This document shows positions 38,765 to 54,865 of a DNA stretch of 64,000 bases, one piece after another. Position numbers and translations under genes: made by a program. The stretch's first letter is position 1, and every line of letters begins with the position of its first letter. This DNA is from an uncultured Saprospiraceae bacterium. GTDB taxonomy: Bacteria > Bacteroidota > Bacteroidia > Chitinophagales > Saprospiraceae. The stretch covers positions 130,589 through 194,588 of the forward strand of contig CALGLU010000022.1 of the NCBI GenBank assembly GCA_937959275.1, read 5' to 3'. The notes beneath the pieces are model-generated. The model was not told where the DNA came from, searched no databases, and worked only from the letters and a program-made list of their open reading frames with translations.

Positions 38765-40609
38765 ATGCCGTCTGCTTTAAAGTATGTGATTATTTCAATA
38801 CTAATTTTTCTGATAAGTGTTCAATTTCTTGTCCTCCCTTGGAAATATCATGTACTATCATATGTCGAAAAGCAATTAGCAATTGCAATTGGATTGGGCA
38901 TTATTTCTCTTTTATTAGCAGTAAAAAAGAAACTATATCTACCAAAGACTTCTTTTACTTGGATCTTTCTTGCCTTTATTTTTTGGATACTAGTTTCTAG
39001 TTTTTGGGCAGTTAATAGTTCGTTGATTTGGCCTGTGTTTATAGTATGGATCATATTCTTCATGGCATATCTGGTTGCTGTATCATTACCAATGGAGATC
39101 TTAAATGCATCAATTCTAACTACGTTCATTTTGGTAATTATCACATTAAATGTAATGGAAGTATATTTTGTATTAATTAGAGCGACAGTAAGAAATGACT
39201 GGAGTTTGTCATTGGTTTTGATAGAAAATACAGTAAAAACATTTAATTTAAATACGAACTATATCGGTTCATTATTCTTATTGTATGTACCTGTACTTAG
39301 AGCTATTCCATATAAAGCTTGGCAACAAGCAATGTCAAGAACTACTATTTTTTTGATCGTTTGTTTAATTCCTTTACTCAACAGTAGAGCCGTTTCACTA
39401 GCTCTTATTTTTCTTGTTATATTTTATGGTTTACATGGCTTCAAGGAAGGTTATTTAAAAAAATATTTAGCTTTTCTCTTTTTGTCTTTAGGTTTATCCT
39501 TTTTCATATATCAGTCATTAATAGCCAATAAAAAAAACTTTAAAGATAAGTACAATCCAATAAGATCTTATAAACTAAATACAGGTGACGACAGATTAAA
39601 ACTATGGTCGAATACTCTTTTGCTCGTTAAAGAGAAACCAATTCTGGGTTCTGGTGCTGGTAACTGGTTTGTCGAAATAAAAAAGTATGGGCTCAATGAG
39701 TACAGCGGCGGTAGTAGCTATGCACAGGCTCATAATGTATGGCTTGAGACCGCAGCTGAACTGGGTTTGATTGGATTATTATTGTTAATAGGAATAGGAA
39801 TAAGTTGCTTCGCAATAATTTTGAGAATAATGAATTGGCATTTAATTGCTTTTTTTCTCTCTATTTCAATTCTCTTAAGTTTTTATGGACTATATAAGCC
39901 GAGAGGCAATTATTTATCATCGTATTATCTGATATCTTTTATTTGGATTGGTCTTCAATTAAGAAAAATAAATACATTCAGAATTTCTCATCTTTGTGGA
40001 TTTATTTATTGTTTGCTTGTTACGTTTTCTATTTATTTGATTTTTAATTTTGTAAGATTTAGTCAGTATACAGATAGACTAAACAAAGCTGAGAAGCAGA
40101 CTTTAGCAGACGAAATTTTGAACTGGGACAACTATTATATGCCTTGGCTAACGACACTCTATAGGGGTAAACCGGCTTTAGATTTAAAATCAAATTGCTT
40201 ATGGAAAATAGGTTTAAGAGAACAAGCTATTAATGTTCAAAAGGCTGCACATAGAATTGATCCGTATAATCAGTCTAGTTGGTTTAAATTGGGAAGAAGA
40301 TATCAGCTGAATAAAGATTTTGAGAATGCTGGTAATGCTTATTTGGAAGTTTTGAATTTATATGAAGATGACGCAGACGCATCACTAGCACTTACTAATC
40401 TTGGTATAAAAACAGGAAATGATTTACTTTATAACCAAGGCGTAAAATTGTATTATGAACGTATCGCTCCCGATTTCAGTATAAATTATTCAGATCATCA
40501 TCTTACAAGCGAAAATTTGCGGATATCAAAGTTTTGGAAAAAGAGATGTCGTGACATTGATACTTACCAAAAATATATCGAACAATGGGAGACTAAATCA
40601 TTGAGATAG
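38765..40609 (+). CDS. O-antigen ligase/polymerase-like (Wzy_C) polytopic membrane protein with C-terminal TPR region
   Basis: 614 aa with about 10-12 TM segments. Wzy_C-type loop and helix (GSGAGNWF...YAQAHNVWLETAAELGLIGLLLL). C-terminal soluble TPR-like repeats (AINVQKAAHRIDPYNQSSWFKLGRRYQLNKDFENAGNAYLEVL). Confidence 0.7.
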   Translation: MPSALKYVIISILIFLISVQFLVLPWKYHVLSYVEKQLAIAIGLGIISLLLAVKKKLYLPKTSFTWIFLAFIFWILVSSFWAVNSSLIWPVFIVWIIFFMAYLVAVSLPMEILNASILTTFILVIITLNVMEVYFVLIRATVRNDWSLSLVLIENTVKTFNLNTNYIGSLFLLYVPVLRAIPYKAWQQAMSRTTIFLIVCLIPLLNSRAVSLALIFLVIFYGLHGFKEGYLKKYLAFLFLSLGLSFFIYQSLIANKKNFKDKYNPIRSYKLNTGDDRLKLWSNTLLLVKEKPILGSGAGNWFVEIKKYGLNEYSGGSSYAQAHNVWLETAAELGLIGLLLLIGIGISCFAIILRIMNWHLIAFFLSISILLSFYGLYKPRGNYLSSYYLISFIWIGLQLRKINTFRISHLCGFIYCLLVTFSIYLIFNFVRFSQYTDRLNKAEKQTLADEILNWDNYYMPWLTTLYRGKPALDLKSNCLWKIGLREQAINVQKAAHRIDPYNQSSWFKLGRRYQLNKDFENAGNAYLEVLNLYEDDADASLALTNLGIKTGNDLLYNQGVKLYYERIAPDFSINYSDHHLTSENLRISKFWKKRCRDIDTYQKYIEQWETKSLR

Positions 40610-41273
40610 AAAAAATCAAAAGAGATTCATTGTGTACTTCTTCTTCATGGACTTTTGATATAACAAAGTCGGGTGTGCCAAAATGCGAGAGTATGCAGTC
40701 AAGAGCGCTGTTCTTTGTTAGAATCATATAAATGATGCCGATAGAGTGGCGACGTTCAATTAATTGTGTCACTAAGTTTTTAAAGTAAATAAAATTCTCA
40801 CCAGTATTAAATGCATATTCATCTATGCTTTTGATGCTTGAATTATAGAATGGAGGGTTTAGAATGACGACATCAAACGTTGTCTTCGGGATATCATTGA
40901 ATAAGTTGGAATAATAAGAAATAATATCTACTTGATGAGTAAGGCTATTAATTTGTACGCCTTTAATCGCACTGGGGTTGATGTCTGAAACATGCGCATT
41001 AACCTCATTGAATTTGGACAAGAATAAAGATATTGCAGCGCTTCCGCAACCAAGTTCTAAGGTTGATTTTCCTTTTAAATCAATTGATAATAGAAAGTTT
41101 AATAGTGTTTCAGTTGTTAGGTAAAGTTGAGGATGAAAAACAGAAGGCAGCAGCTGTAAGGTCATACCTCTAAATCTAATGCTGCGCTGTTTACGAAAAT
41201 AGTATTTAATCGCAGAGTAGATAGGTTTATTTAGCCGTGATGGCAGGGCATATATAATTCTATTCAGAAGCAA
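40593..41273 (-). CDS. class I SAM-dependent methyltransferase with NPPF/Y motif (N-methyltransferase type)
   Basis: 226 aa. SAM-binding LELGCGSAAISLFLS and catalytic-type motif VVILNPPFY. The start overlaps the upstream radical SAM gene by 14 nt. Confidence 0.7.
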   Translation of the reverse strand: MLLNRIIYALPSRLNKPIYSAIKYYFRKQRSIRFRGMTLQLLPSVFHPQLYLTTETLLNFLLSIDLKGKSTLELGCGSAAISLFLSKFNEVNAHVSDINPSAIKGVQINSLTHQVDIISYYSNLFNDIPKTTFDVVILNPPFYNSSIKSIDEYAFNTGENFIYFKNLVTQLIERRHSIGIIYMILTKNSALDCILSHFGTPDFVISKVHEEEVHNESLLIFSISMI

Positions 41274-42789
41274 ATCCTTCTATTTCTGGTTGACGGTATT
41301 TAAGCCAAAATTTTTGTAATATTTTTAATTCATAAGGAAATTTGAAAAAGCCTGACTTGTAACGCCATGACGAAACCATTTTCATAACTTTAGTTTGTAA
41401 TGGTGTAATTTTAGCGTCAGTCGTAGTCGGATATTGTGCATTAAGTACGGTCTCAAAATTTTTCACTTTGTCAACCATAGCAGGCGTAAGCCATGGGGTC
41501 AGTGGATTTTTCCTTAAGTCGAATTTTTCCCAACTGGGATCAAGCCAATCGTTTAGAGTCGAAGGAAAAGAAAAACCAGCAGCTACTATCTTTTTGTAAA
41601 GTTCTGAACCTTGAGTAGGCACAGGACTATATAAATAAATGATAATTTCGGTAGCCGGATTGATGGATTTAATATCCTTAATAAATGCAATTTCGCTATC
41701 AATTTGTTTCATGACTTGTGACTCACTTTCTCCCGGAAATCCTAGTACGAAGGAATATTCAGGAATAATGCCAAAGCGTCCAATCCGATCAGCAAATGCT
41801 TTAATTTGAGCACCTGTTTGTTTGCCTCCTTTATCAATACTATCTAAGATATCGTCACTCCCGCTTTCAGCCCCAAGGAATATCATTTTGCAGCCAGAAT
41901 TGGCCATTATTTGTAGTGACTCGTCAGAGTATTTGTCAATAGTGTCAATCCTCCCTTCGCCCCACCAAGTCATATTATAGGGTGTAATAAGTTTTGAAAA
42001 CTCAACAGTTCTTTTTTCTGAGACAAAAAAGTTATTGTCATGAAATTCAATTGAATCACCTCCATATGTTGACCTTATTAATTCAATGTCTTCTATAATT
42101 TTTTGTGCAGATTTTCCTTTCCATCGTGCTTCAAAAATAGGAACGACAGCACAAAAAGAGCAAGAAAATGGACATCCAATACTTGAGTGATAAGCAATTG
42201 TTTCCTTTCCTAAATGTGTAGGGCGCAAATAATTTTTTATTGAGTAAAAGTCATTCAGTTTGTCATAAGGTAATCGGGGTAGTTCGTCTTGTAAAACGAG
42301 TGTTTGTTTTTCAGTTTTTACAATGTCGCCGTTTTCAAGTTGGTAGATCAGATTTGGTATGAATTCGAAAGAACTGTCAGTTTCCAACGAATTTAGGAGA
42401 AACGGGAATGCATTGTCTCCCGGACCATTGATAATAAAATCAACGATATCACTTTTTATACAGACCTCGTATTGGTTAGATGCGAAATAGCCGCCCCATA
42501 TATTGGTAATGTTAGGGTAGTGTTCTCTGATTTTATTTGTTATTGGAATGGCTTGCTTGAGTTGTGGACCAGGCATTACAGTACAACCAAAGTAGGCAAA
42601 GGAGTCAGTATCTAAATATTGTTTTATCTTAAGCCATGGATTATCTTCTCGATTTCCATCAACGATTACCCAATCCCATGTCTCATTTATACTTGCCGCA
42701 ATTTGCAAAATAGAATTAGGAATTCTAAAATTTGCGTTAGAGACAGCTCTAGGGTTAAATAAAAGAACTCTTCCAGATTTGGTGGACAT
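41260..42789 (-). CDS. B12-binding domain radical SAM protein
   Basis: N-terminal Rossmann-like cobalamin-binding-type region (RVLLFNPRA...VMPGPQL...IWGGYFAS). Radical SAM cluster motif IGCPFSCSFC (CxxxCxxC) and GAESGSD. I prefer the ATG at 42789 (MSTKSGRVLLF) over the track TTG at 42810. Confidence 0.85.
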   Translation of the reverse strand: MSTKSGRVLLFNPRAVSNANFRIPNSILQIAASINETWDWVIVDGNREDNPWLKIKQYLDTDSFAYFGCTVMPGPQLKQAIPITNKIREHYPNITNIWGGYFASNQYEVCIKSDIVDFIINGPGDNAFPFLLNSLETDSSFEFIPNLIYQLENGDIVKTEKQTLVLQDELPRLPYDKLNDFYSIKNYLRPTHLGKETIAYHSSIGCPFSCSFCAVVPIFEARWKGKSAQKIIEDIELIRSTYGGDSIEFHDNNFFVSEKRTVEFSKLITPYNMTWWGEGRIDTIDKYSDESLQIMANSGCKMIFLGAESGSDDILDSIDKGGKQTGAQIKAFADRIGRFGIIPEYSFVLGFPGESESQVMKQIDSEIAFIKDIKSINPATEIIIYLYSPVPTQGSELYKKIVAAGFSFPSTLNDWLDPSWEKFDLRKNPLTPWLTPAMVDKVKNFETVLNAQYPTTTDAKITPLQTKVMKMVSSWRYKSGFFKFPYELKILQKFWLKYRQPEIEGFASE

Positions 42790-42875
42790 ATATCCAGTAT
42801 TTTGGTACAAAATAACGAACTTTCGCTCTTTGATTGCAGAGTTTATAAATTTTATCTATATCATTGATTTAAGCT

Positions 42876-43568
42876 ATGAACCGATTGATCATTTTTTTGA
42901 AGTGGTGTGATTATTACCTTCAGAAAATATTACCAAATTTTATATCGTCTGGGTTTAGAAGGATTTCATCAGCTTTTATTACACCATTTCATTTCTCATA
43001 TGCTACTGGACATTTTTGGAGTAGTCTACTAAAAAAGTCAATAAACAAGAAGGGTAGCCCGATTCCTTGGTATACGTACTCATTAATTTCTTATTTGGAG
43101 GGACTTGATTTTAATGAATGTACGGTCTTAGAAATTGGTGCAGGCAATTCTTCGTACTGGTGGGCAGAAAGAGCAAAGCAAGTCATCAGTTTAGAAAGTG
43201 ATCGTAAGTGGTATGACAAGCTTACGACAGGCAATACGTTTGGCAATCTAAAATTTAGATTTTTGAATAATTTGAGTTCGAATAATTTGCTGAATGAATT
43301 CGAGGACCTGAAGAGTTCAACTTATGACATTGTTATTCTGGATGGTATGGATAGATTGGGCCTGATGAGCAATTGTTTAGAGATGCTTTCTCCTAGAGGT
43401 ATATTGATAGCCGATGATACAGATCGATATGATTATTCTACTATACTAGAGGGAACAGGAATAAATAAAATTGATTTTCATGGTTATTCTCCATCTGTTG
43501 TTTTACCAAAAACAAGTAGCATTTACTTTTATCAATCTTGTAATCTTCTATTAAATTATGAGCGCTAA
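42876..43568 (+). CDS. probable class I methyltransferase-fold protein
   Basis: 230 aa. VLEIGAGNSSYWWAERAKQVISLESDRKWYDKL and IVILDGMDR ... ILIADDTDRY resemble a Rossmann SAM-binding core. The pattern recalls polysaccharide O-methyltransferase-like (DUF579-type) proteins, from memory only. Confidence 0.45.
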   Translation: MNRLIIFLKWCDYYLQKILPNFISSGFRRISSAFITPFHFSYATGHFWSSLLKKSINKKGSPIPWYTYSLISYLEGLDFNECTVLEIGAGNSSYWWAERAKQVISLESDRKWYDKLTTGNTFGNLKFRFLNNLSSNNLLNEFEDLKSSTYDIVILDGMDRLGLMSNCLEMLSPRGILIADDTDRYDYSTILEGTGINKIDFHGYSPSVVLPKTSSIYFYQSCNLLLNYER

Positions 43569-44709
43569 AGTTTCGATCATTGCATGTCTGCTAAGTTGTG
43601 TTTTTATACTGTCTCATTGTGCAACAGCTAAAAAGCACGCTAGTAAAGAGTATGATTTAATAATTAATTTGAGGTGGGTAAAATCTTATAAACAAGAAAC
43701 AAGAGATAAGGTAGAAATAGGATTAAAATGGGTGCTTTCTTATTTGGGGGCGATGTTACCAAAAGATCCTCAAGAACAAGTTTTCGTTTGGAATGACAAT
43801 AATGATTTGGAATTGAATCTTTCCGGAGCCGGATTTACAGTTTCTTCTCAAAGGTCTCTGAATAGAATTTTAAAAGAGTATAAATTGACTGAAGAATATC
43901 AATTACTTGGCAGTATGGATGTAGGTCGGTTTGTTATGTTGAGTTTTAATTTTAGCGATAATTATTATGCCATTACAGGAGTGGAAAAAAAGTATAATAA
44001 ATTCAAACAAAAATATAAATTCAATCCACAAGATCAAACGCACCTCTTACCTGGACAATCTGGTGTCACTAATGGTTTGCGAAAGCTGTATTTTTCAAAT
44101 GGAAAATCAGTTAATGAGCTTGCTCATATTGCAGAAGAAGGTCATGGTGATAATTTAGAAGAGTTTTATCCTAAGGAGTTCGAGGTCTTTGATTTTATGA
44201 GTAATGGACAACCAAGATTTGCAGTATATAATTCACAGGGTAATTTAAAGCAAGGAGGAGACCCATTCATATCTTTTGCAGGAAAACCTTCAAAATGTAT
44301 GTGGTGCCATGAATCAGGCGTTCAATTACCATTTAGATTGATAAATGAATACCCAGAGAATCCAGAATTGTTAGCCGATTTTAAAAATCTTGTAAGCAAT
44401 CAGAATAGGCTATTATTCAACTATTATGAAGGATTGACTACGGAAGTAGATACGTTTAGGTTCGATAAACGCAGCCATTATTTAGCAGAGCTTCTTTACA
44501 TTACATATCAAGACCCGCCTAAATTAAGAGCAGTAAATGAACTAAAATTGATTGGGCAAATAGGCAAAAGAAAAGACTTGAAAGTAGTTGACAGTGTACA
44601 TCATGAGTTTAAGTTTTTAAAAAACCTAGTGTCAAGAAATGAACTTGACAAACATCTACCTTATAAGTCGGTATTGGGTTTTGATGCTAGAGAGACTAAG
44701 CTGAATTAG
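43558..44709 (+). CDS. hypothetical lipoprotein with single CXXCH motif
   Basis: 383 aa. Lipoprotein-like signal (IIACLLSCVFILSHC). One heme c-type motif, KCMWCHESG. Its start overlaps the preceding gene by 11 nt. Confidence 0.5.
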   Translation: MSAKVSIIACLLSCVFILSHCATAKKHASKEYDLIINLRWVKSYKQETRDKVEIGLKWVLSYLGAMLPKDPQEQVFVWNDNNDLELNLSGAGFTVSSQRSLNRILKEYKLTEEYQLLGSMDVGRFVMLSFNFSDNYYAITGVEKKYNKFKQKYKFNPQDQTHLLPGQSGVTNGLRKLYFSNGKSVNELAHIAEEGHGDNLEEFYPKEFEVFDFMSNGQPRFAVYNSQGNLKQGGDPFISFAGKPSKCMWCHESGVQLPFRLINEYPENPELLADFKNLVSNQNRLLFNYYEGLTTEVDTFRFDKRSHYLAELLYITYQDPPKLRAVNELKLIGQIGKRKDLKVVDSVHHEFKFLKNLVSRNELDKHLPYKSVLGFDARETKLN

Positions 44710-44720
44710 CTGGGTGTATA

Positions 44721-46256
44721 TTAAAGTTGAATTAAATAGACTGCATAATTTTCTCGCTTTACGATTCCTTCACTAAAGGTTTTAAGGAGCGTTACGGTTG
44801 CTGAGTTAAGCTTAAATTCTTTTTCTGTAGCTTCAAAGAAAATATCCTCTCCATGATACAGTAAAACACTTTTCCTTAGATTTTCCTTCTTCATGTAAGC
44901 CATGGTTTCATCAACTGATTTTTTAAGATCAAACTGCTTGTCTAAGCCTCTTGCTTTAAAAAGTTGATCCCATTCGCAAAAAATCACGCTGTCTTGTATA
45001 TTTAAAAAATACACTGGTTGACTATGGTAGTTTCTAATAGAGATACAATTACAGTATGCATTTGATACTAAGGGATAATCCTGATAGCCATTGTTATCCA
45101 AAAATTCATAAATAGATTTAGTAGCAGAAAAGGGTCTTTTTATATCTGAAATTGTATGGTAGACCCCAGAGGCAATCTGAACAATAAGAATAATTCCTAG
45201 AAGTAAAGGTCTATACTTGAGAATAAAGGGTGAAGGAATCCAAACGAAGTTTTCTGTGGATTCATTAGAATCCATCCATTTAAGAGTGATTAGGAAAAGT
45301 AACAATACACCTCCATACCTTACTCCTGCATGTAATTGCGTTATTATATATATAACAACAATAGTAATAGCTAATACGTACCATACAGATAACAACCAAC
45401 TACTTTGCCATCTAAACATAAATGGAAATAACCAAGACAACAAAACCAAGGGTGCAATGAACCATTTAAACTGATATGTTAAGATATTGGTATTCCAAAA
45501 AAATGATGATCCAATATCTGGTACAGGCATTAACGCTTTGAAGAACAGCATGAGCGCATCAGCTAGTTTTTCAAAAGAGATAGAAAAACCAGTGTTTGAA
45601 ACAAATGGATTATCAAATGGGGGAAGGATTGAGAATAATGACATTAGGAGCATGACAACTAAAATGAGTATTCCAGTTTTTGACCCTTTTATTTCATGTA
45701 GCTTAGATAGTCCGGTTTTAGTAATGATGGCGTTTGCAAAAAGCGAAGAAAATATTAAACCGAAAATGTGTGTATTTGCAATTAGTCCTAGGACAATACT
45801 AATTTTAATCCATGACTGTTTGTAATTTTTGTAATAGATAGACAAGCAAAATAGTAGTAGTATAAGGAGACCATAATTTCTTGTTATTACACCATATTCG
45901 TAGAGAGGGAAATAACTAAAAGCACAGGCATACTTTAAATAAGAGGGAAATGGAGCTTTTTTTACAAATAGTAGGACACCTGAAAATGTAATCATTCCAT
46001 GAATGAGTTGTATAAGTAAGGTGTTTTCAGAAATGTAAGAAGCCGCATACATAATAAGAACCCATAAGAAAGGGTGACCGTCATACCTATAATTGTGGAT
46101 TAATTCAACAAGACTGTTTGATTCTCTTGCTACTAACCAATGATGACTTTCATCCATCCACATCTCATGATTTATGATGCCGACAAATAGACACACAGCA
46201 TAAATTAATAAGATGAATGAATTTGTATATTTATGTGTAATTATATTCTTTAGCAT
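44721..46256 (-). CDS. polytopic membrane protein, GT-C-fold glycosyltransferase-like (ArnT/PMT-like)
   Basis: 511 aa with about 11 TM segments. An acidic DE motif follows the first TM (HEMWMDESHHWLVARE), as in GT-C enzymes. Soluble C-terminal domain of about 120 aa. Confidence 0.5.
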   Translation of the reverse strand: MLKNIITHKYTNSFILLIYAVCLFVGIINHEMWMDESHHWLVARESNSLVELIHNYRYDGHPFLWVLIMYAASYISENTLLIQLIHGMITFSGVLLFVKKAPFPSYLKYACAFSYFPLYEYGVITRNYGLLILLLFCLSIYYKNYKQSWIKISIVLGLIANTHIFGLIFSSLFANAIITKTGLSKLHEIKGSKTGILILVVMLLMSLFSILPPFDNPFVSNTGFSISFEKLADALMLFFKALMPVPDIGSSFFWNTNILTYQFKWFIAPLVLLSWLFPFMFRWQSSWLLSVWYVLAITIVVIYIITQLHAGVRYGGVLLLFLITLKWMDSNESTENFVWIPSPFILKYRPLLLGIILIVQIASGVYHTISDIKRPFSATKSIYEFLDNNGYQDYPLVSNAYCNCISIRNYHSQPVYFLNIQDSVIFCEWDQLFKARGLDKQFDLKKSVDETMAYMKKENLRKSVLLYHGEDIFFEATEKEFKLNSATVTLLKTFSEGIVKRENYAVYLIQL

Positions 46257-46339
46257 TTCATCAATAAATTGAAGCTAGTTAAACGACTGTCACTCTCTTT
46301 TTGAAAAGTGAATAACATAGGTAAATATGATACTAATTT

Positions 46340-47221
46340 ATGACGAATAGACTTGTTTCAATTATTACACTTACCTATAATAGAAGAAATATTTTAGGTA
46401 AAAGTATAAAAAGTGCTTTAGAACAAACATATACTAATTTTGAGCTACTCATCTTAGACGATGGGTCAGATGATGGTACTTCAGAATTCATGCAGACATT
46501 TTCTGATAGCCGGATTAGCTATAAGTATTTAAATCACAGTGGGAATGTAGCAGCATTGCGTAACAAAGGAATGAAGCTAGCCAAAGGCGAATATATTGCC
46601 TTCTTAGATTCAGATGATTTATGGTCGCCCAATAAATTAGAAGTTCAGGTAAATTGCTTAGAAGATAACCCAGAGACAGGAATTACATTTTGTGGCACTA
46701 AGCGTTGGGATTCTTATGGTAACATCAAAGAAAATCATTTTAAGCACTTGGAGTATGATTCTGTGCCACAGAATCTTTTTAATGATTTTATAGTTAACAA
46801 ATTTATCGTTGTTCCTTCCGCCTGTTTATTCAGAAAATCTGTTCTTAATCAATCTGGTTATTCCAATGAAAATCTAATAACTGGTGACACTGAGTTTATA
46901 TCTCGAATACTTATTAATGAATTAGCGATAGTAGATAAAGATGCTTATGTTGAAATGACGCAAAATGGTGACAATATGACTAACTATATTCAAAAAGATA
47001 GTTACCATGAATATCAGTATATGCTCGATTACAATTTTGAAAGGAATCTGATCTCTCAGCCGATATACACAAAGATGTCAGCTCGTATGTCGTATTTATT
47101 AGCAAAACAATTGTTAGTTGAAAATAAGCTTAAGGAATCGCGCAAAGTTTTCGGTAAGACAATTCGAATGAATAAGTTGAATTATAAAGCGTGGTTTTAT
47201 TACTTAAAATCTTATTTATAA
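46340..47221 (+). CDS. family 2 glycosyltransferase
   Basis: 293 aa. Motifs VSIITLTYNRRN, ILDDGSDDGT and AFLDSDDLW. Confidence 0.9.
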   Translation: MTNRLVSIITLTYNRRNILGKSIKSALEQTYTNFELLILDDGSDDGTSEFMQTFSDSRISYKYLNHSGNVAALRNKGMKLAKGEYIAFLDSDDLWSPNKLEVQVNCLEDNPETGITFCGTKRWDSYGNIKENHFKHLEYDSVPQNLFNDFIVNKFIVVPSACLFRKSVLNQSGYSNENLITGDTEFISRILINELAIVDKDAYVEMTQNGDNMTNYIQKDSYHEYQYMLDYNFERNLISQPIYTKMSARMSYLLAKQLLVENKLKESRKVFGKTIRMNKLNYKAWFYYLKSYL

Positions 47222-47242: not shown

Positions 47243-47983
47243 ATGGCATCATTGAATAAACTCGCGAAAAGAATAGGGAAGCGATTCCTTCCACGATTTT
47301 ATGCGTATTTGAAAGAGCAAAAAATGATGCGCTTTTATTCTACATTAATTAGTCAAGGAGATTTGTGTTTTGATATAGGTGCGAATATGGGGAATCGTAC
47401 ATCAGTGTTTTTAAAACTAGGCGCAACAGTTGTTGCAGTTGAGCCTCAAGCAAAGTGCATCTCGCATTTGGAAGAACTGTATAAAAATGATCAAAATGTC
47501 TCAGTAGAAACTTGCGCATTAAATGAAACATCAGGTAGTTCTATCATGTATATTTCAGATTTTGACCAAATTTCAACCTTGTCGCAAGAATTTGTTCAAA
47601 AATTTGGAGAGGGAAATGAATTAAGCTGGCCTTCGAAAGAAACGGTTGAAATGAAAACATTTGATCAGTTGATTGAACAATATGGTGTCCCTGATTTTAC
47701 AAAAATTGATGTGGAAGGTTTTGAGTTAAATGTACTAAAAGGCTTGTCTGTTTCTATACCTTCTCTTTCTTTTGAATTTACAACGCCAATGAAATATAAA
47801 AGTATAGAATGCATTAAGCAATTGATGAGTTTGGGAGAGTATCAGTTTAAGCTTTCTTACTACGAAACGATGAAGTTCGACAGCCCCAAATGGCTTGATG
47901 ATAAGCAAATCTTACAGCAACTCAATGTGATTCCAAAACACATTGTACATGGTGATGTCTATGCCAAATTAGTTAAGCATTAG
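47243..47983 (+). CDS. FkbM family methyltransferase
   Basis: 246 aa. Motifs CFDIGANMGNRTSVF, VVAVEP and TKIDVEGFELNVLKG. Confidence 0.85.
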   Translation: MASLNKLAKRIGKRFLPRFYAYLKEQKMMRFYSTLISQGDLCFDIGANMGNRTSVFLKLGATVVAVEPQAKCISHLEELYKNDQNVSVETCALNETSGSSIMYISDFDQISTLSQEFVQKFGEGNELSWPSKETVEMKTFDQLIEQYGVPDFTKIDVEGFELNVLKGLSVSIPSLSFEFTTPMKYKSIECIKQLMSLGEYQFKLSYYETMKFDSPKWLDDKQILQQLNVIPKHIVHGDVYAKLVKH

Positions 47984-48836
47984 CTTCATATTTTTCATAG
48001 AATTCAAAGATCTCATTTTCACTATAGAAGTGCTTTGTATACTTTGATTCTAACATGTTTGTTAAATAATCTTGGTTAAAAAAGATCTTCTTTTTAAACT
48101 TGTTGTATAGCTCTGCATATGGTTTTTGTTCTCCAATATTATGGGAATTTAAAGTAAATGTAGAAACGCCGAGAAAACGCCTAATCTCTTCTGACATCTT
48201 GTTATCGTTTAGGTCTGTGCGAAGTAATAGAACCTCAATGTTTTTATCTGTATAAGTGATAGATTTTTTAGTTACATCGAAAGACTTTTCAAATACATTA
48301 ATTGATGTCATTCGAAGAAACTCTTTGTCAAACCATTCTAAAGGAAATTCATGTGGCAAGTATTTATAGTAGGCTTGTACTAATTGATCGATGTCTCCCT
48401 CCCACAGTTTTGGAGGGATGCCAAGATAATATTCGAAAGCCTCAAAGAAAGCAGAAATGTTTCTTTCTATTGGTTCTCTGACACTTGTAATGATTTTTAA
48501 TGGTCTATTTGCTTTTATTCTAAACTGGTAGATAAGGTCTCCAACAGGCCTGCTCGCGGGCACAATTCCTCTTTCTTGACAACTTAGTTCGGCTTGTTCA
48601 TTTATTTTCTTGTCTAGTGTATGTATATGATAAACAGGGATTGTTGTCTGATTATTTATAGAATGGTATATTGAACTAGAAGCTACCTTGGCCATGGTAT
48701 ACACTGCTACAGGAGTAATTTCTTGTTGTAATACTCGACAAGCTTTTCGATAGTTATATCGATCTATTATTTGATAACGCGCTATGGACTTTAGTTTTTT
48801 AATGTTTAAATATTTAGTTTTCTTATCGTATAGCAT
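47973..48836 (-). CDS. sulfotransferase-like protein
   Basis: 287 aa. 5'-PSB-like TMAKVASSSIYHS and 3'-PB-like SVREPIERNISAF motifs in the expected order. The assignment is by pattern only. Confidence 0.45.
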   Translation of the reverse strand: MLYDKKTKYLNIKKLKSIARYQIIDRYNYRKACRVLQQEITPVAVYTMAKVASSSIYHSINNQTTIPVYHIHTLDKKINEQAELSCQERGIVPASRPVGDLIYQFRIKANRPLKIITSVREPIERNISAFFEAFEYYLGIPPKLWEGDIDQLVQAYYKYLPHEFPLEWFDKEFLRMTSINVFEKSFDVTKKSITYTDKNIEVLLLRTDLNDNKMSEEIRRFLGVSTFTLNSHNIGEQKPYAELYNKFKKKIFFNQDYLTNMLESKYTKHFYSENEIFEFYEKYEANA

Positions 48837-50371
48837 CCTGGTGCTCTACCAGTATCTGTTAAAAAGATGACTGTCGATTCATTAATAATGTAGGGACTTA
48901 TTTTTTTATCTTTTGTGTTAGTCAATTGCCTGTTTTTATAATAGATTTGATTATCAGTTACGTTAATGTCATCAGTACTGTAAGTCGATACTTGAATCCC
49001 TGTCTTTCTCAATGTTTCACCAGTAATGCTCCAATAATAATATTGTAATTCTCCTTCTACTATTTTTAAATTGCTCATTATGAGTGGTGGTTTATGATTT
49101 AATTCGAAGTATTGATAGGCGCTAGTTAAATTCTTATTTGAGAAGCCTTGAATTGAAAACACAATGATAAAACCGACTACATAGTTAAAAGGCATACGAT
49201 AGGCGTGTAGGCCTGAGATTAATACAAACACAATAAATAGCAATAAAATTTTTATAAAATTAAAGGGTAAGGCTAGATTGATTAAGTAATGAGTCGGGAA
49301 GGTGGTTACGAAAAGCAATAATGTAAGTATTATAAGTAAGGTACTTTGTTTTATTTTGTAATGAAAAAGTGATAGAATAGGAATGATAAGTATAAGTTTA
49401 GAATAACTACTGCTAGTCGGAGCAATTAATAAGCCAGCAATAATCCAAAGGGAAAATGAATATAGAATGTATGTTTTATTAAGCCGTGTTGCAGAAGCAG
49501 CTAGTGCAAAGATCAAAGACTTATATAAAACGAAGCTTAATGTATACAAGAAAGTACTGCTAATGAAAGGACTAGGATTTAGCAGGTCGTCTTTCACAAA
49601 TGTGTTTTTAAAAAGCATAACAGTTGATTTTGCTTGAACTGTAAATCCATCATATATTAGACCGGCACTAGATGAGGGAAAAACATCTGCAAAATAATAG
49701 TGTAAGGTTTCAAAACTAATAAGCAGAGAAGAAGCTAAGATTAGTAATCCACAGGTAACAAAAATGTAACAAATGGTAGCAAAGTCTTTTTTGAAAAACA
49801 ACCAAAATAATATGATTATTGGAAAAACTTTAATTAAAATTGCCACAGACCATAAAAGTGCAGCTAATGGTTTACGATTTTTTTCATAGGATAGTAGACC
49901 TTCAGCTAATAGAAAGAAAATAAAAAAATAGGTCTGGCCAAAGAGCAGAGTGTTTTTAATGGCTACCGCTGTTAGAATTATGATTATCGCATAGTGCCAA
50001 GCGTTAAGTTTATAGTAAGAGAAAAGACGGCATAGAGCTAAAAGGAATAATGATGCTCCAATTATATTATGTATTAATTTAGCTTCTGGCCAATCAAAAT
50101 AACTGAGAGGTAAATATGCAATTGCAATAAAGGGGGTGTTAGGATAAAAATTTACAAACAGCTTGTTAATCCCAACGTCTTCGAAAAGCTGATTAAAATG
50201 AAGAGCATCATAAATGTCTGGTGTAAAATTATTTGCTAATATAGCCTTTCCACCTAAATAATAATTAGCAAAGTCATGTATTTGAAACGTATATGACTTC
50301 CAAAGATAAAAGGCAACCAAAATTATACTAGCTAACACAAAGCCTAGATATTTAGTGCGTTCACTTAGCAT
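48806..50371 (-). CDS. polytopic membrane protein, GT87/DUF2029-like glycosyltransferase
   Basis: 521 aa. N-terminal HDFANYYLGGKAIL after TM1 resembles the DUF2029/GT87 signature. About 10 TM segments plus a C-terminal extracytoplasmic domain of about 120 aa. Confidence 0.55.
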   Translation of the reverse strand: MLSERTKYLGFVLASIILVAFYLWKSYTFQIHDFANYYLGGKAILANNFTPDIYDALHFNQLFEDVGINKLFVNFYPNTPFIAIAYLPLSYFDWPEAKLIHNIIGASLFLLALCRLFSYYKLNAWHYAIIIILTAVAIKNTLLFGQTYFFIFFLLAEGLLSYEKNRKPLAALLWSVAILIKVFPIIILFWLFFKKDFATICYIFVTCGLLILASSLLISFETLHYYFADVFPSSSAGLIYDGFTVQAKSTVMLFKNTFVKDDLLNPSPFISSTFLYTLSFVLYKSLIFALAASATRLNKTYILYSFSLWIIAGLLIAPTSSSYSKLILIIPILSLFHYKIKQSTLLIILTLLLFVTTFPTHYLINLALPFNFIKILLLFIVFVLISGLHAYRMPFNYVVGFIIVFSIQGFSNKNLTSAYQYFELNHKPPLIMSNLKIVEGELQYYYWSITGETLRKTGIQVSTYSTDDINVTDNQIYYKNRQLTNTKDKKISPYIINESTVIFLTDTGRAPGCYTIRKLNI

Positions 50372-51743
50372 ACCTCATTTTATTTCTAAAATAAAATGCC
50401 TTTAACACATGTTTAAGAGCGGTTACATTTAGATAGTTCTTAGCCACAAGAAATTGATGCCATCTTGTTTCATTATCTACCCACCTCAACGCGTAGTCAT
50501 AATACTGTCGTGAATATGTTCGTTTAAAATCTCGATCACGGTCTGTAGACGTGGCCCAGTCTTTATCATATACTTGATCAGCTTCTATCTCTTGGTACAT
50601 TGAGGTACCCTTAATGGGATAAGCTACTGTTATTGTAAAATGATTTGGTTGGCAATCTTTTAAATAGTCTACGGTCATAAAAATGTCTTCTTCTGTTTCA
50701 CCTGGATAACCTAGCATAATAAACGTACCTGCTTCAATGCCTTTTTTCTTTGTTAGTTTAATCATGTCACTTACATAATTAACATCAACCCTTCTATCCA
50801 TTAAATTGATGACTCGTTGAGATCCACTTTCTGCGCCAATCCATATTCTAAAACATCCTGCTTCTACAAGCCAATCGATTACCTCCTCTGTCATTCGATC
50901 TGCTCTTGTGATACATTCAAAAGGTATAATGGCATCCTGTTTTTTGAGCTCGTCTTTAAAATCCTCCAGCCATTTATGACTGACTGAGAAGACATCATCT
51001 ACAAACCAAATGGTGTCTGGATTATAGTTGTCTTTAAGTGTCTTCATTTCTTGAGCTACGAGGGCTGGCGATCGCCTGCGGTAACTTTGGCCATACACTG
51101 CAGTGCTACACCATTTACATGTATAGGGACATCCTCGTTGTGTACTTATGGTCATTGCACTTTTGCCATGATTTTGCTTCCAAGTGTCTAGATATGGTTG
51201 CATATCTATCATTTTCCTGTTTGGCAAGGGGAGATCATCAATAGGTCTGATTCTGGTCCTCTCTTTGGTTTGTATGACTTCTCCTTGACTGCGGTAAGCT
51301 AAGCCGTCGATGTGAGCGAATTCCTGATCGTTGCCTTGCTGAATAGTTTGTATGATCTCCAACATTGTTTGTTCGCCTTCTCCAATCACGATAATATCTG
51401 CACCAATATTTAGATAATCTTCAACATTGTGTCTCACATCAGGACCACCCAAGACTATTTTTGTGCCCGCACTATGCTTTTTTGTATGTTGAATCGTTTC
51501 ATTAATATTTACCTTCGTCATCAAATTAGTATACAAGGCTAATATGCTAGGCTGCTGTTTTTTGATGTGATCTTTGAATATTTCTTTTTTGGAAAATGTG
51601 GTGTCAAAGACCTCGTGTTGCAATCCATGTTTTTCTAGCCACGCAGAGATATACAGTATCCCAAGCGGAGGATATGGCTTCATGATCTTCTGCTCTTTAG
51701 CATCTTCATAAATATAATAACCGTGGGATAGAATGACTGTCAT
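50361..51743 (-). CDS. B12-binding domain radical SAM protein (paralogue of 52509..53948)
   Basis: 460 aa. N-terminal B12-binding-type Rossmann region (PPLGILYISAWL ... VLGGPDV ... VIGEGEQT). Radical SAM motif RGCPYTCKWC and IGAESGSQRV. Confidence 0.85.
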   Translation of the reverse strand: MTVILSHGYYIYEDAKEQKIMKPYPPLGILYISAWLEKHGLQHEVFDTTFSKKEIFKDHIKKQQPSILALYTNLMTKVNINETIQHTKKHSAGTKIVLGGPDVRHNVEDYLNIGADIIVIGEGEQTMLEIIQTIQQGNDQEFAHIDGLAYRSQGEVIQTKERTRIRPIDDLPLPNRKMIDMQPYLDTWKQNHGKSAMTISTQRGCPYTCKWCSTAVYGQSYRRRSPALVAQEMKTLKDNYNPDTIWFVDDVFSVSHKWLEDFKDELKKQDAIIPFECITRADRMTEEVIDWLVEAGCFRIWIGAESGSQRVINLMDRRVDVNYVSDMIKLTKKKGIEAGTFIMLGYPGETEEDIFMTVDYLKDCQPNHFTITVAYPIKGTSMYQEIEADQVYDKDWATSTDRDRDFKRTYSRQYYDYALRWVDNETRWHQFLVAKNYLNVTALKHVLKAFYFRNKMRYAK

Positions 51744-52507
51744 TTAATTTTTTGCAAATGAATTAGAAAATGATCCGATTTATCAGGCCTATAATTTAAC
51801 AGGTACAAAATCTTGTCGATCAACAAAAGTGGGAAAAGTAATTTACTATTATTTAAAAAGGAAGGTACATATCCTATTGATTTTATCTTAACAATATCAA
51901 AACCTTTAAATGCAGTCGCTACAGCATTAGGCCCAAAGTAGTAAGTTTTGATCGTTTGCCCGTCAACATTAACGGCTAACACTTTATCTTTTTCTCTAGT
52001 TTTTGAAATAGTCGCTTGCCGGTTGACCACACGGTACCAGTTATCTATGATCGATTTAGTGGGCATGATGACTAAAACAATATGTGCCTTGTCATTCAGA
52101 TGCTCATTAAGCCAGGTACTAATGAATGCCAATTGATTGTAGTCGATGCAATTGAGCCCACCAAAGTTTGAAAAGACAAGGTCAAATTTTGTCTTTTTAT
52201 CTAAAGAAGGTTGCCTTAAATCAAGTTGGGAAAAAGTAACTTCAAGCTTGTTTTGTTTTGATTTTGCCTTTGCAATATTGAGCATTGCATCTGAAATGTC
52301 AGTAGCTAAGACACGATAACCCAAGCGTGTAAGAAATTGTGCATCTTCACCAGTCCCACAGTTCAGCTCTAAGACATTGCGATTCGAATGTTTGGCTTTA
52401 AGTTTTAATATATAATCCCATACTCGTTTGCGCTGCACTTGTCCAATTTTCGAATATGTAAACTCTCGATCATAGGCTTCTGCAGCATTGTCAAAGTCCG
52501 CACTCAT
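51740..52507 (-). CDS. class I SAM-dependent methyltransferase
   Basis: 255 aa. Motif VLELNCGTGEDAQFL...DISDAML...DLVFSNFGGLN. There is a 4-nt overlap with the downstream gene and a 1-nt gap to the upstream gene. Confidence 0.85.
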   Translation of the reverse strand: MSADFDNAAEAYDREFTYSKIGQVQRKRVWDYILKLKAKHSNRNVLELNCGTGEDAQFLTRLGYRVLATDISDAMLNIAKAKSKQNKLEVTFSQLDLRQPSLDKKTKFDLVFSNFGGLNCIDYNQLAFISTWLNEHLNDKAHIVLVIMPTKSIIDNWYRVVNRQATISKTREKDKVLAVNVDGQTIKTYYFGPNAVATAFKGFDIVKIKSIGYVPSFLNNSKLLFPLLLIDKILYLLNYRPDKSDHFLIHLQKIK

Positions 52508-52508
52508 C

Positions 52509-53948
52509 TTAAATATAGCTTTGAAGCTTTCTTTTATTCAGCAGTGCTAATGGAAAATGATAAACCATCCTAGCTATATCTTTCAAAAAAGAGTCTTGCT
52601 TAGAATTCAATTTTCCGGTGGCCCTCATGAAACCTTTCTTGATTCGATAACGATTATGGACATAACGATGTAGTACTTTGTAAAATATTGGTGGATATGT
52701 ATTTTGAAACATCATATCAAGATCGTCTGAATCTGTCCAGTTCGATTTGAGCACTAAGTCCGCTTTGACCTTTTCATAAAAGGAAGTCCCTGGTAGGGGA
52801 TAAGAAACTGATATGCCGATATCGTCGGGCATTAGATCCAGCACCATATTAATGGTTTGTTGGACTTCTTCCCACGTTTCAGTGAGGTAACCGAATTGGA
52901 GGAAGAACGCGACGTTTACATTTCTTTCTTTGAGTTTACGAGTTGCCGTGTAAATCTGGTCTACGGTTGTGCCTTTGTCCATGGCATCCAATATTCTTTG
53001 AGAACCACTCTCTGCACCTAGCCAAATAGTATCTACGCCACTTTCGGCTAATGCATCCAAGTTGTCATCTTTGAGCATCAGGTCAGCTCGTGACTGGATT
53101 TTATATTTAAAGTCTAGTCCTTTCTCATTTTTTAAATCTCTAAACCGTTGTACCCAGCCTGGCTTAAGACCAAAAATATCATCGCACATCCAAAAGTAAT
53201 CAACACCATATGTCCTTATCAAATAGTCTATTTCTTGAATAACATCTTCAGGAGATCGGCTATTATATCGGTTACCATAAATCGGTTTGGCACACCAATT
53301 ACATTTATACGGACACCCTCTTGTCGTTGCAATGTTAAGCTGCAGGGCTTGGCCTTTTGTAGACCAAATAGAGCGATACGCTTCTATATCTATATCTTCT
53401 CTACTTGGAAAGGATAGCTGATCAAGATTTTTCGTTACTTGACGATTAGCATTTTTTGATACACCATTTTTATCGTTGCGACTAATTCCTAAAACCGCAT
53501 TAAGGTCGCCATCCTTTTTTATGGTTTCCAATAATTCGATTAGCGTTAATTCACCTTCTCCGTGAATAATAAAGTCTGCTCCTTTTTCATGATAGAGTTG
53601 AAAGTGATCCGTCGCGTCGGAGCTATTACAGATGACAAGGCATCCATGTTCTTTTGCTTTAGCAATGATATCAAATGTAGCCTGCTGCATGGTTGACAGG
53701 CACATCTTAGTCAGGTAGTTAAACCCATCATCATATAGTATAAGGTGAGTTGGTTTTAGTGAAGTTATTTCTTCATAGATCTCCTCATGACTTTTTACCA
53801 AATTGTTGTCAAAGACCGTTGTCTCAAAGCCAGCTTTTCTAAGTTCAGATGCCGCATAAAGAGTGCCTAAGGGTGTATAGGGTTGAGCTATTTGCCATTG
53901 TTTAACATCATATTGATAATAGTATGTATTTGCAATCAGAATGCGCAT
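52509..53948 (-). CDS. B12-binding domain radical SAM protein (paralogue of 50361..51743)
   Basis: 479 aa. Motifs TPLGTLYAASEL ... IHGEGELT, RGCPYKCNWC and LGAESGSQRI. Confidence 0.85.
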   Translation of the reverse strand: MRILIANTYYYQYDVKQWQIAQPYTPLGTLYAASELRKAGFETTVFDNNLVKSHEEIYEEITSLKPTHLILYDDGFNYLTKMCLSTMQQATFDIIAKAKEHGCLVICNSSDATDHFQLYHEKGADFIIHGEGELTLIELLETIKKDGDLNAVLGISRNDKNGVSKNANRQVTKNLDQLSFPSREDIDIEAYRSIWSTKGQALQLNIATTRGCPYKCNWCAKPIYGNRYNSRSPEDVIQEIDYLIRTYGVDYFWMCDDIFGLKPGWVQRFRDLKNEKGLDFKYKIQSRADLMLKDDNLDALAESGVDTIWLGAESGSQRILDAMDKGTTVDQIYTATRKLKERNVNVAFFLQFGYLTETWEEVQQTINMVLDLMPDDIGISVSYPLPGTSFYEKVKADLVLKSNWTDSDDLDMMFQNTYPPIFYKVLHRYVHNRYRIKKGFMRATGKLNSKQDSFLKDIARMVYHFPLALLNKRKLQSYI

Positions 53949-53953
53949 AAGAG

Positions 53954-54865
53954 CTAAGCAGGTGTTTTAGTAATATTGGAATTATACTTTCTAAGTGTAT
54001 TTTTTTGGTGATTCGAATCATGCACTTTGATTTGATCAAATGTAGACCTGTACATTAATTCGAAATCTTTGTTTTTTTTGTTATTATACTTTAAGTGATT
54101 TCTTAAAACGGAAGCAGACCTAATTATGTAATTGAGAATCGATCCCAAGGGATTATTCAAAATGAGTTCAGTCCAGCGTTTGATTTTACTTTTATTGAAT
54201 GGTCGTTCAATATAATTCGTATCGTCGATACTGATATTGGGCAAATAGGTCTTGTACCATGTATTGGCAAGCAACAACTGATCATATAAGTTTTTACTAC
54301 TGATTGGTATTAGTGTCGCAAGCTCAGTTGCCGTATATAGGTTTTGCTCTTCAATAGTTAAATTCTCATCAGAGATAAAGTAGTTTGTACAGAAAAGCTC
54401 TTTTCGGTTTTTTAGAATTAAGAACTTGTATGCTTTAACAAAGAACTTTGCTAGCCAAATTTTTCCGCTTTTTGCAAAAATAAAGTAGTCGATATCTGCA
54501 TCATCTTTCATAACTCCTTTGGATAAACTTCCAGAAATACAAACGCCTGAAACAAATGGAATATTCAATATTATATGACCATGCTTCACACTCGTCTCAT
54601 GATGTCCAAATGCATTCTTTTCATACTTTATTCTATCATGAACCTTTTTTTCAAGATGCAGGAGTCCGTAATAATCTTGAAATGAATATGCTGAATTAGT
54701 AGCGATAAGTTTTTGAAGAGCTATTTTAATTTCTGATTCTTCGGCCTTAGATTGTAAAAATCGATGAATCTCTGAAACGTTCAAAGGGTGATCAAATAAA
54801 TCAAAATAATGCAGGCATTTTAGTACCTGAAGTTCCAATTCACTTATTTTTTTCTTTGAACTCAA
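53954..54865 (-). CDS. Pol-beta-superfamily nucleotidyltransferase-like protein with N-terminal winged-helix-like segment
   Basis: 303 aa. ISGSLSKGVMKDDADIDYFIF fits the G[SG]x9-13DxD nucleotidyltransferase motif. Apparent TTG start. It is the first gene of a tightly packed six-gene minus-strand operon. Confidence 0.55.
   Translation of the reverse strand: MSSKKKISELELQVLKCLHYFDLFDHPLNVSEIHRFLQSKAEESEIKIALQKLIATNSAYSFQDYYGLLHLEKKVHDRIKYEKNAFGHHETSVKHGHIILNIPFVSGVCISGSLSKGVMKDDADIDYFIFAKSGKIWLAKFFVKAYKFLILKNRKELFCTNYFISDENLTIEEQNLYTATELATLIPISSKNLYDQLLLANTWYKTYLPNISIDDTNYIERPFNKSKIKRWTELILNNPLGSILNYIIRSASVLRNHLKYNNKKNKDFELMYRSTFDQIKVHDSNHQKNTLRKYNSNITKTPA

Follow-up and report, generated by a model that had tools for sequence, protein, structure and literature searches.

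A conserved cassette of B12-type radical SAM enzymes and a Pol-beta-type nucleotidyltransferase in a probable envelope-glycan island of a Saprospiraceae bacterium

The DNA analysed here is a stretch of 64,000 nucleotides (hereafter the window) from contig CALGLU010000022.1 of an uncultured Saprospiraceae bacterium, and its subject is an island of ~16 kb at positions 38765-54865 in which 14 open reading frames (ORFs) of 226-614 aa lie back to back. A first-pass annotation, made from the letters and an ORF list, had described this interval as fourteen consecutive genes rich in radical S-adenosylmethionine (SAM) enzymes and methyltransferases, and the gene count and the near absence of intergenic DNA are borne out: neighbouring genes overlap by 4-31 nt or are at most 21 nt apart, except at two divergent junctions, g3/g4 (65 nt) and g6/g7 (83 nt). 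There are six strand units, g1 (+), g3>g2 (-), g4>g5 (+), g6 (-), g7>g8 (+) and g14>g13>g12>g11>g10>g9 (-); the last is the longest, with six genes, and the conserved core operon described below begins with g14. G+C content is 0.32-0.35 in the island and 0.38-0.42 in the flanks. Scans of the island proteins against Pfam and NCBIfam gave these assignments:

38765-40609, plus strand: g1, Wzy_C (PF04932) membrane protein with C-terminal tetratricopeptide repeats (TPRs)
40593-41273, minus strand: g2, MTS/PrmC-like methyltransferase with an NPPF motif (PF05175)
41260-42810, minus strand: g3, third B12-type radical SAM enzyme, IGCPFSCSFC
42876-43568, plus strand: g4, probable class I methyltransferase, sub-threshold Methyltransf_24; rare accessory gene
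43558-44709, plus strand: g5, exported protein, probably a lipoprotein, with an invariant CxxCH; no family
44721-46256, minus strand: g6, polytopic membrane protein; no family above threshold
46340-47221, plus strand: g7, family 2 glycosyltransferase (GT2), soluble, TuaG/WcaA-like (PF00535)
47243-47983, plus strand: g8, FkbM-family methyltransferase (PF05050); accessory gene
47973-48836, minus strand: g9, NKWYS (PF10364), "putative capsular polysaccharide synthesis protein"; accessory gene
48806-50371, minus strand: g10, GT87 (PimE-like) polytopic glycosyltransferase (PF09594)
50361-51743, minus strand: g11, second B12-type radical SAM enzyme, RGCPYTCKWC
51740-52507, minus strand: g12, class I SAM methyltransferase of the core
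52509-53948, minus strand: g13, B12-type radical SAM enzyme, RGCPYKCNWC; the most constant partner of the nucleotidyltransferase (NTase)
53954-54865, minus strand: g14, winged helix, Pol-beta-type NTase and helical C-terminal domain

Three of the proteins (g5, g6 and g14) match no Pfam family above threshold. The families that the first-pass annotation had put forward for profile searches were largely recovered, namely PF02310 (in g11, and weakly in g3 and g13), PF04055, PF04932, PF09594, PF05050 and PF00535; the sulfotransferase families were not.

A consistent association of the NTase with radical SAM (rSAM) and methyltransferase genes is evident from the comparison of related genomes. Relatives of the NTase occur in 422 of 185,579 species genomes (one genome per species), and the carriers are Saprospiraceae and other Chitinophagales, Cyclobacteriaceae, Fulvivirgaceae and other Cytophagales, Flavobacteriaceae (among them Aquimarina, Winogradskyella and Flavivirga) and Ignavibacteriales; the closest species representatives are Saprospiraceae metagenome-assembled genomes (MAGs) with 48% NTase identity. 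Gene order was compared by matching the ORFs of the best 80 loci, out of the 422 species, to the 14 island proteins, and neighbourhood counts refer to those 58 species loci whose downstream flank is 8 kb or longer. The order g14-g13-g12 on one strand is found in nearly all of the ~80 loci, with the g13 orthologue directly downstream of the NTase in almost every one. In 48 loci the fourth core gene is an orthologue of g11; in the others, chiefly those of Cytophagales, that position is occupied by a second class I methyltransferase. The g3 rSAM gene is linked in 27 loci, mostly with g2 detected alongside; g5, g6, GT87 and NKWYS genes recur in Flavobacteriaceae. One metagenomic locus (L002, 63% identical) retains 10 of the 14 island genes, and a compact locus in a Cytophagaceae MAG (L093) has GT87-g5-g3-g2 facing g11-g12-g13-g14. 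Median identity to the window copy across orders is 54% for g13, 57% for g11 and 61% for g3, far above that of the NTase (~33%) or the glycosyltransferases. The rSAM-methyltransferase-rSAM-NTase core, for which the first-pass annotation had proposed a neighbourhood comparison across Bacteroidota, is thus conserved across that phylum and also in Ignavibacteriales, and its genes stay together in relatives; since the linkage is kept across orders and two phyla, it is more than a chance juxtaposition.

The catalytic motif of the NTase itself is strictly conserved, as is the CXXCH motif of g5 described below; both of these early calls hold. An alignment of 19 sequences with 31-61% identity to g14 shows no variation in the motif SGSLSKG-x7-DxD or in 33 further columns, and the Pol-beta signature hG[GS]-x(9-13)-Dh[DE]h of g14 sits in a minimal NTase fold. 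The Pfam match to NTP_transf_2 is sub-threshold, with an E of 0.011; in a fusion relative Pfam matches pass the threshold. The confident AlphaFold2 model (predicted local distance difference test score, pLDDT, 89) has an N-terminal winged helix, a minimal Pol-beta core with the order alpha-beta-alpha-beta-alpha-beta, and a helical C-terminal domain. Foldseek returned nothing at E<1e-3 from the PDB for this model, the weak matches being to winged helix-turn-helix domains of the IclR/HrcA kind and to MNT, AAD(9) and LinB. Small-molecule Pol-beta NTases (ANT/AAD, LinB, MNT) are the only NTase folds recovered by Foldseek; they share with g14 the pattern G-S-x-x-x-G-x7-D-x-D and a minimal core followed by a helical domain, whereas g14 differs from them in its extra winged helix, its B12-rSAM operon and the fusions of its relatives to glycan enzymes. 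The database gene call for g14 begins 9 codons later (294 aa). A database search recovered 217 relatives and an exhaustive profile search 1591 at E<=1e-30, the latter number counting representatives, one per 50%-identity cluster. Five of the top 150 family representatives are fusion proteins in which the catalytic motif is intact (P0373, P0418, P0425, P0467 and P0470), and their architectures are Bac_transf-NTase, GT4-NTase, methyltransferase-NTase and, twice in independent representatives, NTase-short-chain dehydrogenase/reductase (SDR) epimerase/dehydratase. Such fusions are useful handles on the substrate of the NTase.

All three of the B12-type rSAM enzymes that the first-pass annotation had listed are present, with the quoted CxxxCxxC motifs intact in g3 (IGCPFSCSFC), g11 (RGCPYTCKWC) and g13 (RGCPYKCNWC); the motif is kept in 159 of 166 homologues. 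The Radical_SAM domain (PF04055) scores 42 bits in g3, 82.6 in g13 and 83.5 in g11, all above the 29.5-bit cut-off, and the B12-binding domain (PF02310) scores 49 bits in g11, above its cut-off of 32.1, and 23 and 21 bits in g3 and g13, below it; many g3 and g13 orthologues carry precomputed PF02310 matches. The enzymes form three separate orthologous groups, g11 and g13 being paralogues with 33% identity and g3 being ~25% identical to either. None of them reaches the cut-off of any NCBIfam B12-rSAM subfamily, a set that includes BchE, HpnJ, HpnR, PhpK, RiPP (ribosomally synthesized and post-translationally modified peptide) C-methylases, MgmA/QCMT, AprD4 and BzaD; scores are 3-6 times too low, with best ratios of score to cut-off of 172/600 (PhpK), 155/481 (BchE) and 133/578 (HpnJ). 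For g13 the best NCBIfam matches are BchE (147 bits) and HpnJ (119 bits), again far under the cut-offs, and the nearest PDB entry is 9CCB/QCMT (68 bits); for the three enzymes together the solved structures closest in sequence are QCMT (9CCB), AprD4 (6FD2), OxsB, TokK and CysS, at 41-74 bits. The earlier suggestion that these enzymes methylate carbon is therefore not upheld by the profile matches, all of which lie under the NCBIfam cut-offs and the nearest of which include the non-methylating BchE, HpnJ and AprD4.

Class B rSAM families act on unactivated carbons of carbohydrate-like substrates, as in the C-methylation of aminoglycosides by GenK/GenD1 and the ring contraction of hopanoid glucosamine by HpnJ. 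The B12-dependent rSAM enzymes known so far belong, with few exceptions, to pathways for antibiotics, cofactors, pigments, hopanoids and RiPPs. The island enzymes share the CxxxCxxC core and, above cut-off in g11 and weakly in g3 and g13, the B12-type domain with those that act on sugars or glycolipids (GenK/GenD1, HpnJ, OxsB, AprD4); those known settings are antibiotic or hopanoid pathways, whereas here three orthologous groups stand together in a surface-glycan locus.

Four methyltransferases are supported in the island, three of them (g2, g8 and g12) solidly and g4 weakly, and the fifth of the "up to five" that had been counted is not. Protein g2 matches PF05175 with 51 bits, and NPP[FY], the signature of amino-group (N-) methyltransferases of the HemK/RsmC/N6-methyltransferase class, is present in 15 of 16 homologues. 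The core methyltransferase g12 matches Methyltransf_25/31/11 and has an orthologue in 56 of the 58 loci with enough flank; g8 matches PF05050 (55 bits) and TIGR01444 (85 bits). For g4 the best match, Methyltransf_24, scores 21.8 bits against a cut-off of 26.3, its sequence holds the glycine-rich motif LEIGAGNSS, and it was seen again only in L002. The remaining accessory protein, g9, matches PF10364 (E 1.6e-25) and occurs in 5 of the 58 loci; NKWYS was its only family match even at E<=5, and no PDB sequence matched, so neither its description as sulfotransferase-like nor the sulfated product proposed from it is supported. All three of g4, g8 and g9 are patchy across related loci.

The g3 and g2 genes form a two-gene module, g3 having thousands of relatives in the database under generic names only, and two complete genomes show other settings of g3. 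In L094 the g3 orthologue adjoins Sulfotransfer_3, two GT4 genes and a PMT_2 GT-C enzyme, and in L095 it adjoins a polysaccharide deacetylase and an acetyltransferase; the latter stretch (8911-14011) continues from the deacetylase and acetyltransferase through the g3-g2 pair to an MR_MLE_C (enolase-superfamily) gene and a VanY-type peptidase. The L095 deacetylase is in keeping with a role of the NPPF methyltransferase in N-methylating a sugar amine that has been freed.

Three of the island proteins are polytopic, and no transmembrane (TM) segment or signal peptide was found in the rSAM enzymes, the methyltransferases or the NTase, which places the tailoring enzymes in the cytoplasm. Protein g1 (Wzy_C 76 bits, cut-off 31.7) has ~10-12 TM segments and TPRs at residues 476-571 that match consensus-TPR structures (E 4e-15). 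Its profile match assigns it to the Wzy_C superfamily of ligases, polymerases and O-oligosaccharyltransferases (O-OTases), activities that the domain alone cannot separate. Homologues of g1 of ~600 aa adjoin the core in Saprospiraceae and Ignavibacteria loci, and in Cytophagales a shorter Wzy_C protein lies directly upstream of the NTase. Protein g10 (PF09594 72 bits, cut-off 25; ~10 TM segments) has an invariant H32-D33 in its first loop, the profile of its family matches PDB entry 9dm5, "Mannosyltransferase" (E 7e-10), and GT87 recurs in 13 of the 58 loci as well as in L093. Of the early labels for the polytopic proteins, Wzy_C fits g1 and GT87 fits g10, and that of GT-C is unsupported for the third, g6: it has ~8 TM segments and, in seven aligned homologues, an invariant HE.W.DE.HHW near the N-terminus, three of the seven homologues match EpsG weakly, and in Flavobacteriaceae loci it adjoins g5 and GT87, but it has no match in Pfam or the PDB, and as a GT87 paralogue it was rejected, hhalign against the GT87 family giving a probability of 1%. 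The single GT2 that had been named is confirmed in g7, which matches PF00535 with 113 bits, has no TM segment and is most like TuaG/WcaA.

The exported protein g5 begins with a helix resembling an export signal with a conserved Cys, and in its invariant motif AGKPxKCxWCHE and beyond it C247, C250, H251 and H307 are invariant in 24 sequences, as are E311 and Y314. All of its 410 homologues are named "hypothetical", and its neighbours are always a GT87, polytopic, Wzy_C or B12-rSAM protein. The confident AlphaFold2 model (pLDDT 88) has a best Foldseek match in the PDB of E 0.08 with TM-scores of at most 0.13, no PDB sequence matches, and despite the CxxCH no similarity to cytochrome folds or families was found. 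Protein g5 may thus be either a c-type haem protein of new fold or a Cys2His2 metal protein, the conserved residues forming the candidate site. Apart from what the island does, this family of more than 400 members could be a new kind of periplasmic haem or metal protein.

Taken together, these data make it probable that the island is an uncharacterised, widely conserved envelope-glycan pathway in which a cytoplasmic sugar-tailoring cassette feeds lineage-variable assembly genes. Three lines of evidence point to glycan assembly: the neighbourhood, the NTase fusions and the conservation pattern. A GT2, GT4 or GT87 gene is present in 50 of the 58 loci, a fused ABC exporter or Wzx-like protein in 27 and Wzy_C in 15, and the NTase is fused to glycan enzymes, in agreement with the linked, envelope-glycan-type system that the first-pass annotation had envisaged. 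A conserved cytoplasmic core within variable sets of glycosyltransferases, polymerases and exporters is the pattern of a sugar-precursor cassette, as known from O-antigen and capsule loci. Cassettes of the rmlABCD type are likewise small conserved cytoplasmic sets in fixed order, around which the glycosyltransferases, polymerase and exporter vary; they consist of an RmlA-type nucleotidyltransferase with SDR and cupin enzymes, whereas the island has a Pol-beta-fold NTase, B12-rSAM enzymes and SAM methyltransferases.

In the mechanism that we propose, g14, g13, g12 and g11 together with the g3-g2 pair would tailor one unusual sugar in the cytoplasm, while it is nucleotide-activated or carried on undecaprenyl (pyro)phosphate; this cytoplasmic stage is suggested by the lack of TM segments and signals in these enzymes and by the NTase fusions. 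The NTase would make the nucleotide-activated substrate or nucleotidylate a sugar hydroxyl, and the former role fits its position as first gene and its SDR fusions. The B12-rSAM enzymes would carry out radical chemistry at unactivated carbons, with C-methylation the likeliest outcome and ring contraction or dehydration, as by HpnJ, OxsB and AprD4, the alternatives, and the class I methyltransferases would add O- or N-methyl groups. The GT2 may then build a lipid-linked glycan, which GT87, g6 and the Wzy_C-TPR protein, judged by topology and family, might extend, polymerise or ligate in the periplasm with g5 as an exported partner; FkbM, NKWYS and g4 would add further decorations. Modification on the periplasmic face, as first suggested, is accordingly not supported for the tailoring enzymes, which are predicted to be cytoplasmic, while a periplasmic step is credible from the match between the GT87 profile and a mannosyltransferase and from the export signal of g5. 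Flipping and initiation would have to be supplied from elsewhere in the genome, since genes for neither lie in the window.

Known systems resemble parts of this scheme. ArnC/ArnT, GtrA/B/C and PimE systems likewise combine a GT-C-type transferase, a GT2 and cytoplasmic modifying enzymes; the island GT2, however, is not like ArnC or GtrB, no flippase of the GtrA/ArnEF type was seen, and the rSAM enzymes, the NTase and the CxxCH protein are features that these systems lack. Systems with PglL or WaaL and a PglK-like flippase offer a parallel to the Wzy_C gene by the core and to the fused exporter, with transmembrane and nucleotide-binding domains in one protein, of many Cytophagales loci; the Wzy_C protein of the window differs in its C-terminal TPR and has no exporter nearby, and its transfer activity is putative. 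The parts are drawn from known superfamilies (class B rSAM, Wzy_C, GT87, GT2, Pol-beta NTase, class I methyltransferase), and a B12-rSAM tailoring core in a surface-glycan pathway has no precedent known to us. No description of the gene set was found among curated families, solved structures or the full-text literature, and there is no NCBIfam equivalog for the core; the first-pass annotation likewise could name no characterised pathway with this gene set.

Several observations weigh against this envelope-glycan pathway. A Wzx, an ABC exporter and an initiating phosphoglycosyltransferase are all missing from the window, as are nucleotide-sugar genes; the first-pass annotation had reported this absence for the island and it extends to all 64 kb, although such genes do occur in related loci. 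The island GT2 is not of the ArnC/GtrB type that would feed a polyprenyl-phosphate sugar to a GT-C enzyme (E 1.5e-4 against the ArnC model, 21 bits against a cut-off of 529). With no island enzyme at the cut-off of a characterised subfamily, reactions are not fixed by family. The NTase is the least conserved of the core proteins, at ~33% identity; we know of no precedent for a sugar-1-phosphate nucleotidyltransferase of Pol-beta fold; the modelled winged helix could instead mean a regulatory role; and the fusions are in-frame database gene calls only. Finally, no product is known from any carrier organism.

The alternative that survives best, although we regard it as unlikely, is protein O-glycosylation, with g1 as a PglL-like O-OTase whose TPR recruits protein targets, possibly type IX secretion system (T9SS) cargo, and with the cassette as the maker of the methylated oligosaccharide that g1 would transfer; it differs from the pathway proposed above only in naming the acceptor. 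The joining of Wzy_C to TPR repeats in g1, the abutment of Wzy_C and NTase genes in loci from Cytophagales, Saprospiraceae and Ignavibacteria, the fused, PglK-like ABC exporter of 19 of the 58 loci and the T9SS cargo genes that adjoin the cassette in several loci are all in line with it. In addition, a 2025 review (PMC12871550) states that methylation is common in the O-glycans of Bacteroidota and that the OTase and ligase for these have yet to be discovered. Against this, Wzy_C does not tell ligase, polymerase and O-OTase apart and is within reach in only 15 of the 58 loci, T9SS cargo genes are numerous enough for their adjacency to be chance, and a cassette found so sporadically, in 422 of 185,579 species, cannot be the general system for a modification that is phylum-wide.

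An ordinary strain-variable O-antigen or capsule locus, in which the rSAM enzymes are just exotic tailoring and nothing sets the cluster apart, seems improbable. It would account for the low G+C content of the island (0.32-0.35, against 0.38-0.42 in the flanks), for flanking genes that change between relatives (a phosphoribosyltransferase in L002 where the window has GldB), for the patchiness of g4, g8 and g9 and for a glycosyltransferase complement that varies with lineage. In the core, however, gene order, strand and an identity of 50-65% are maintained in Flavobacteriales, in Cytophagales, in Chitinophagales/Saprospiraceae and in Ignavibacteriales, which is not how hypervariable serotype genes behave, and every hallmark of a canonical Wzx/Wzy or ABC pathway is absent from the window.

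Still less probable is membrane-lipid tailoring, in which the substrate of the rSAM enzymes would be the head group of an isoprenoid, ether lipid or glycolipid, to be methylated, cyclised or ring-contracted in the manner of HpnJ, HpnR and ladderane-type rSAM enzymes, and the glycosyltransferase and GT-C genes would add or move that head group. HpnJ (112-133 bits), "lipid biosynthesis B12-binding/radical SAM protein" (105-129 bits) and HpnR are indeed among the best NCBIfam matches, and the solved GT87 example acts on lipid-anchored glycans; yet the scores are 3-6 times under the cut-offs and no better than those for BchE, PhpK or RiPP methylases, no lipid-synthesis gene recurs in 80 loci, and the fusion partners of the NTase are glycan-assembly enzymes.

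Several B12-rSAM enzymes with an NPPF-type N-methyltransferase recall polytheonamide-type clusters. A RiPP (proteusin-like) cluster, in which B12-rSAM C-methyltransferases and the N-methyltransferase modify a precursor peptide, is nevertheless very improbable: that resemblance, the NCBIfam matches to ApyD and "RiPP maturation radical SAM C-methyltransferase" (70-149 bits) and the SPASM rSAM that accompanies 11 of the 58 loci are set against scores far below the cut-offs, the lack of any conserved small ORF near the core when ORFs of 25-95 aa were clustered over 94 loci or of a precursor ORF in the g14-gldB gap or upstream of g1, the absence of an RRE/PqqD, protease or peptide-exporter pattern, and the predominance of glycan genes and glycan-enzyme fusions. 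Anti-phage defence was considered and rejected, PADLOC giving generic matches to rSAM and methyltransferase domains only and nothing for g14, g3, g5, g6 or g9.

Within the envelope-glycan pathway that we favour, a more specific version, which we offer as tentative, is that the core is a self-contained pathway for an undescribed envelope sugar, C-alkylated at unactivated carbons or turned into a carbocycle, with a Pol-beta-fold enzyme as a non-canonical sugar nucleotidyltransferase and a periplasmic haem lipoprotein of new fold that works with GT-C enzymes in installing the sugar. On that version, many marine and soil Bacteroidota and Ignavibacteria would need a supply of vitamin B12 for their surface chemistry. 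If the favoured pathway exists, surface composition would be tied to cobalamin availability where microbes trade B12. It would also predict new sugar structures and give functions to three large "hypothetical" families (the NTase, the CxxCH lipoprotein and g6), and a conserved trio of B12-rSAM enzymes in a cell-surface glycan cassette, present in at least 422 species, would be new ground for envelope glycobiology. The cassette is carried by named culturable strains (Winogradskyella endarachnes HL2-2, Aquimarina sp. LLG6339-5, Chryseolinea serpens DSM 24574 and Ohtaekwangia koreensis DSM 25262), which makes these proposals directly testable.

T9SS cargo genes, recognised by Por_Secre_tail or CHU_C domains, lie by the cassette in several unrelated loci, which may be chance or a hint at the acceptor; one of them has Laminin_G_3 and N-glycanase_C domains. 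The sites are as follows:

L004/L005: a gene for 1143 aa that stops 3 nt short of the NTase
L010, 842-2743
L092, 18747-20450
L094, 132-3168 and 13316-15808

Seven Cytophagales/Fulvivirgaceae loci share a conserved non-coding motif of ~45 nt, GTGATAAAATTCTAYYCTTTTTCYSGAAATTCAAAT, in which AAATTC recurs at a distance of 20 nt. The motif is found ~170-1500 nt upstream of the NTase operon and is absent from the window; it had no Rfam match in the four of these loci that were scanned, and in that lineage it may serve the cassette as operator or promoter. Its positions are:

L043, 9040-9068
L040, 5125-5153
L042, 2307-2335
L045, 9769-9797
L070, 8540-8568
L086, 8550-8578
L089, 9804-9832

Rfam at gathering thresholds gave no match in the window or the four loci, including no cobalamin or SAM riboswitch, and a promoter/terminator scan, of a kind poorly suited to Bacteroidota promoters, did not rise above shuffled expectation. 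A mobile island was considered and set aside: no repeats were found around it, tRNA is absent from the Rfam results and integrase from the Pfam scans of the neighbours, and the dip in G+C is the sole hint of transfer.

The island is flanked by gldB on one side and on the other by a DIOX_N/2-oxoglutarate-Fe(II) oxygenase gene (37106-38074), beyond which lies a TPR histidine kinase gene (34841-36778); these last two recur in no related locus and are thus probably outside the system. Between the oxygenase gene and g1 is an unusually long non-coding gap of 690 nt (38075-38764), the only sizeable intergenic stretch at the edge of the island, which matches nothing in Rfam and has no ORF longer than 35 aa. 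Outside the island the window is of housekeeping character (hut genes, Trk, the mevalonate pathway and T9SS cargo), and its gldB gene and T9SS-type proteins point to Bacteroidota as its phylum. Within this remainder, the listed urocanase ORF at 12061-14202 starts at a TTG ~100 nt inside the preceding amidohydrolase gene, and since its Pfam match begins at residue 127 the true start is probably further downstream. At 21596-24208 the window encodes a protein of 870 aa that has no assignment over its first ~700 residues and whose only family match is a short C-terminal cytochrome c domain at residues 726-775.

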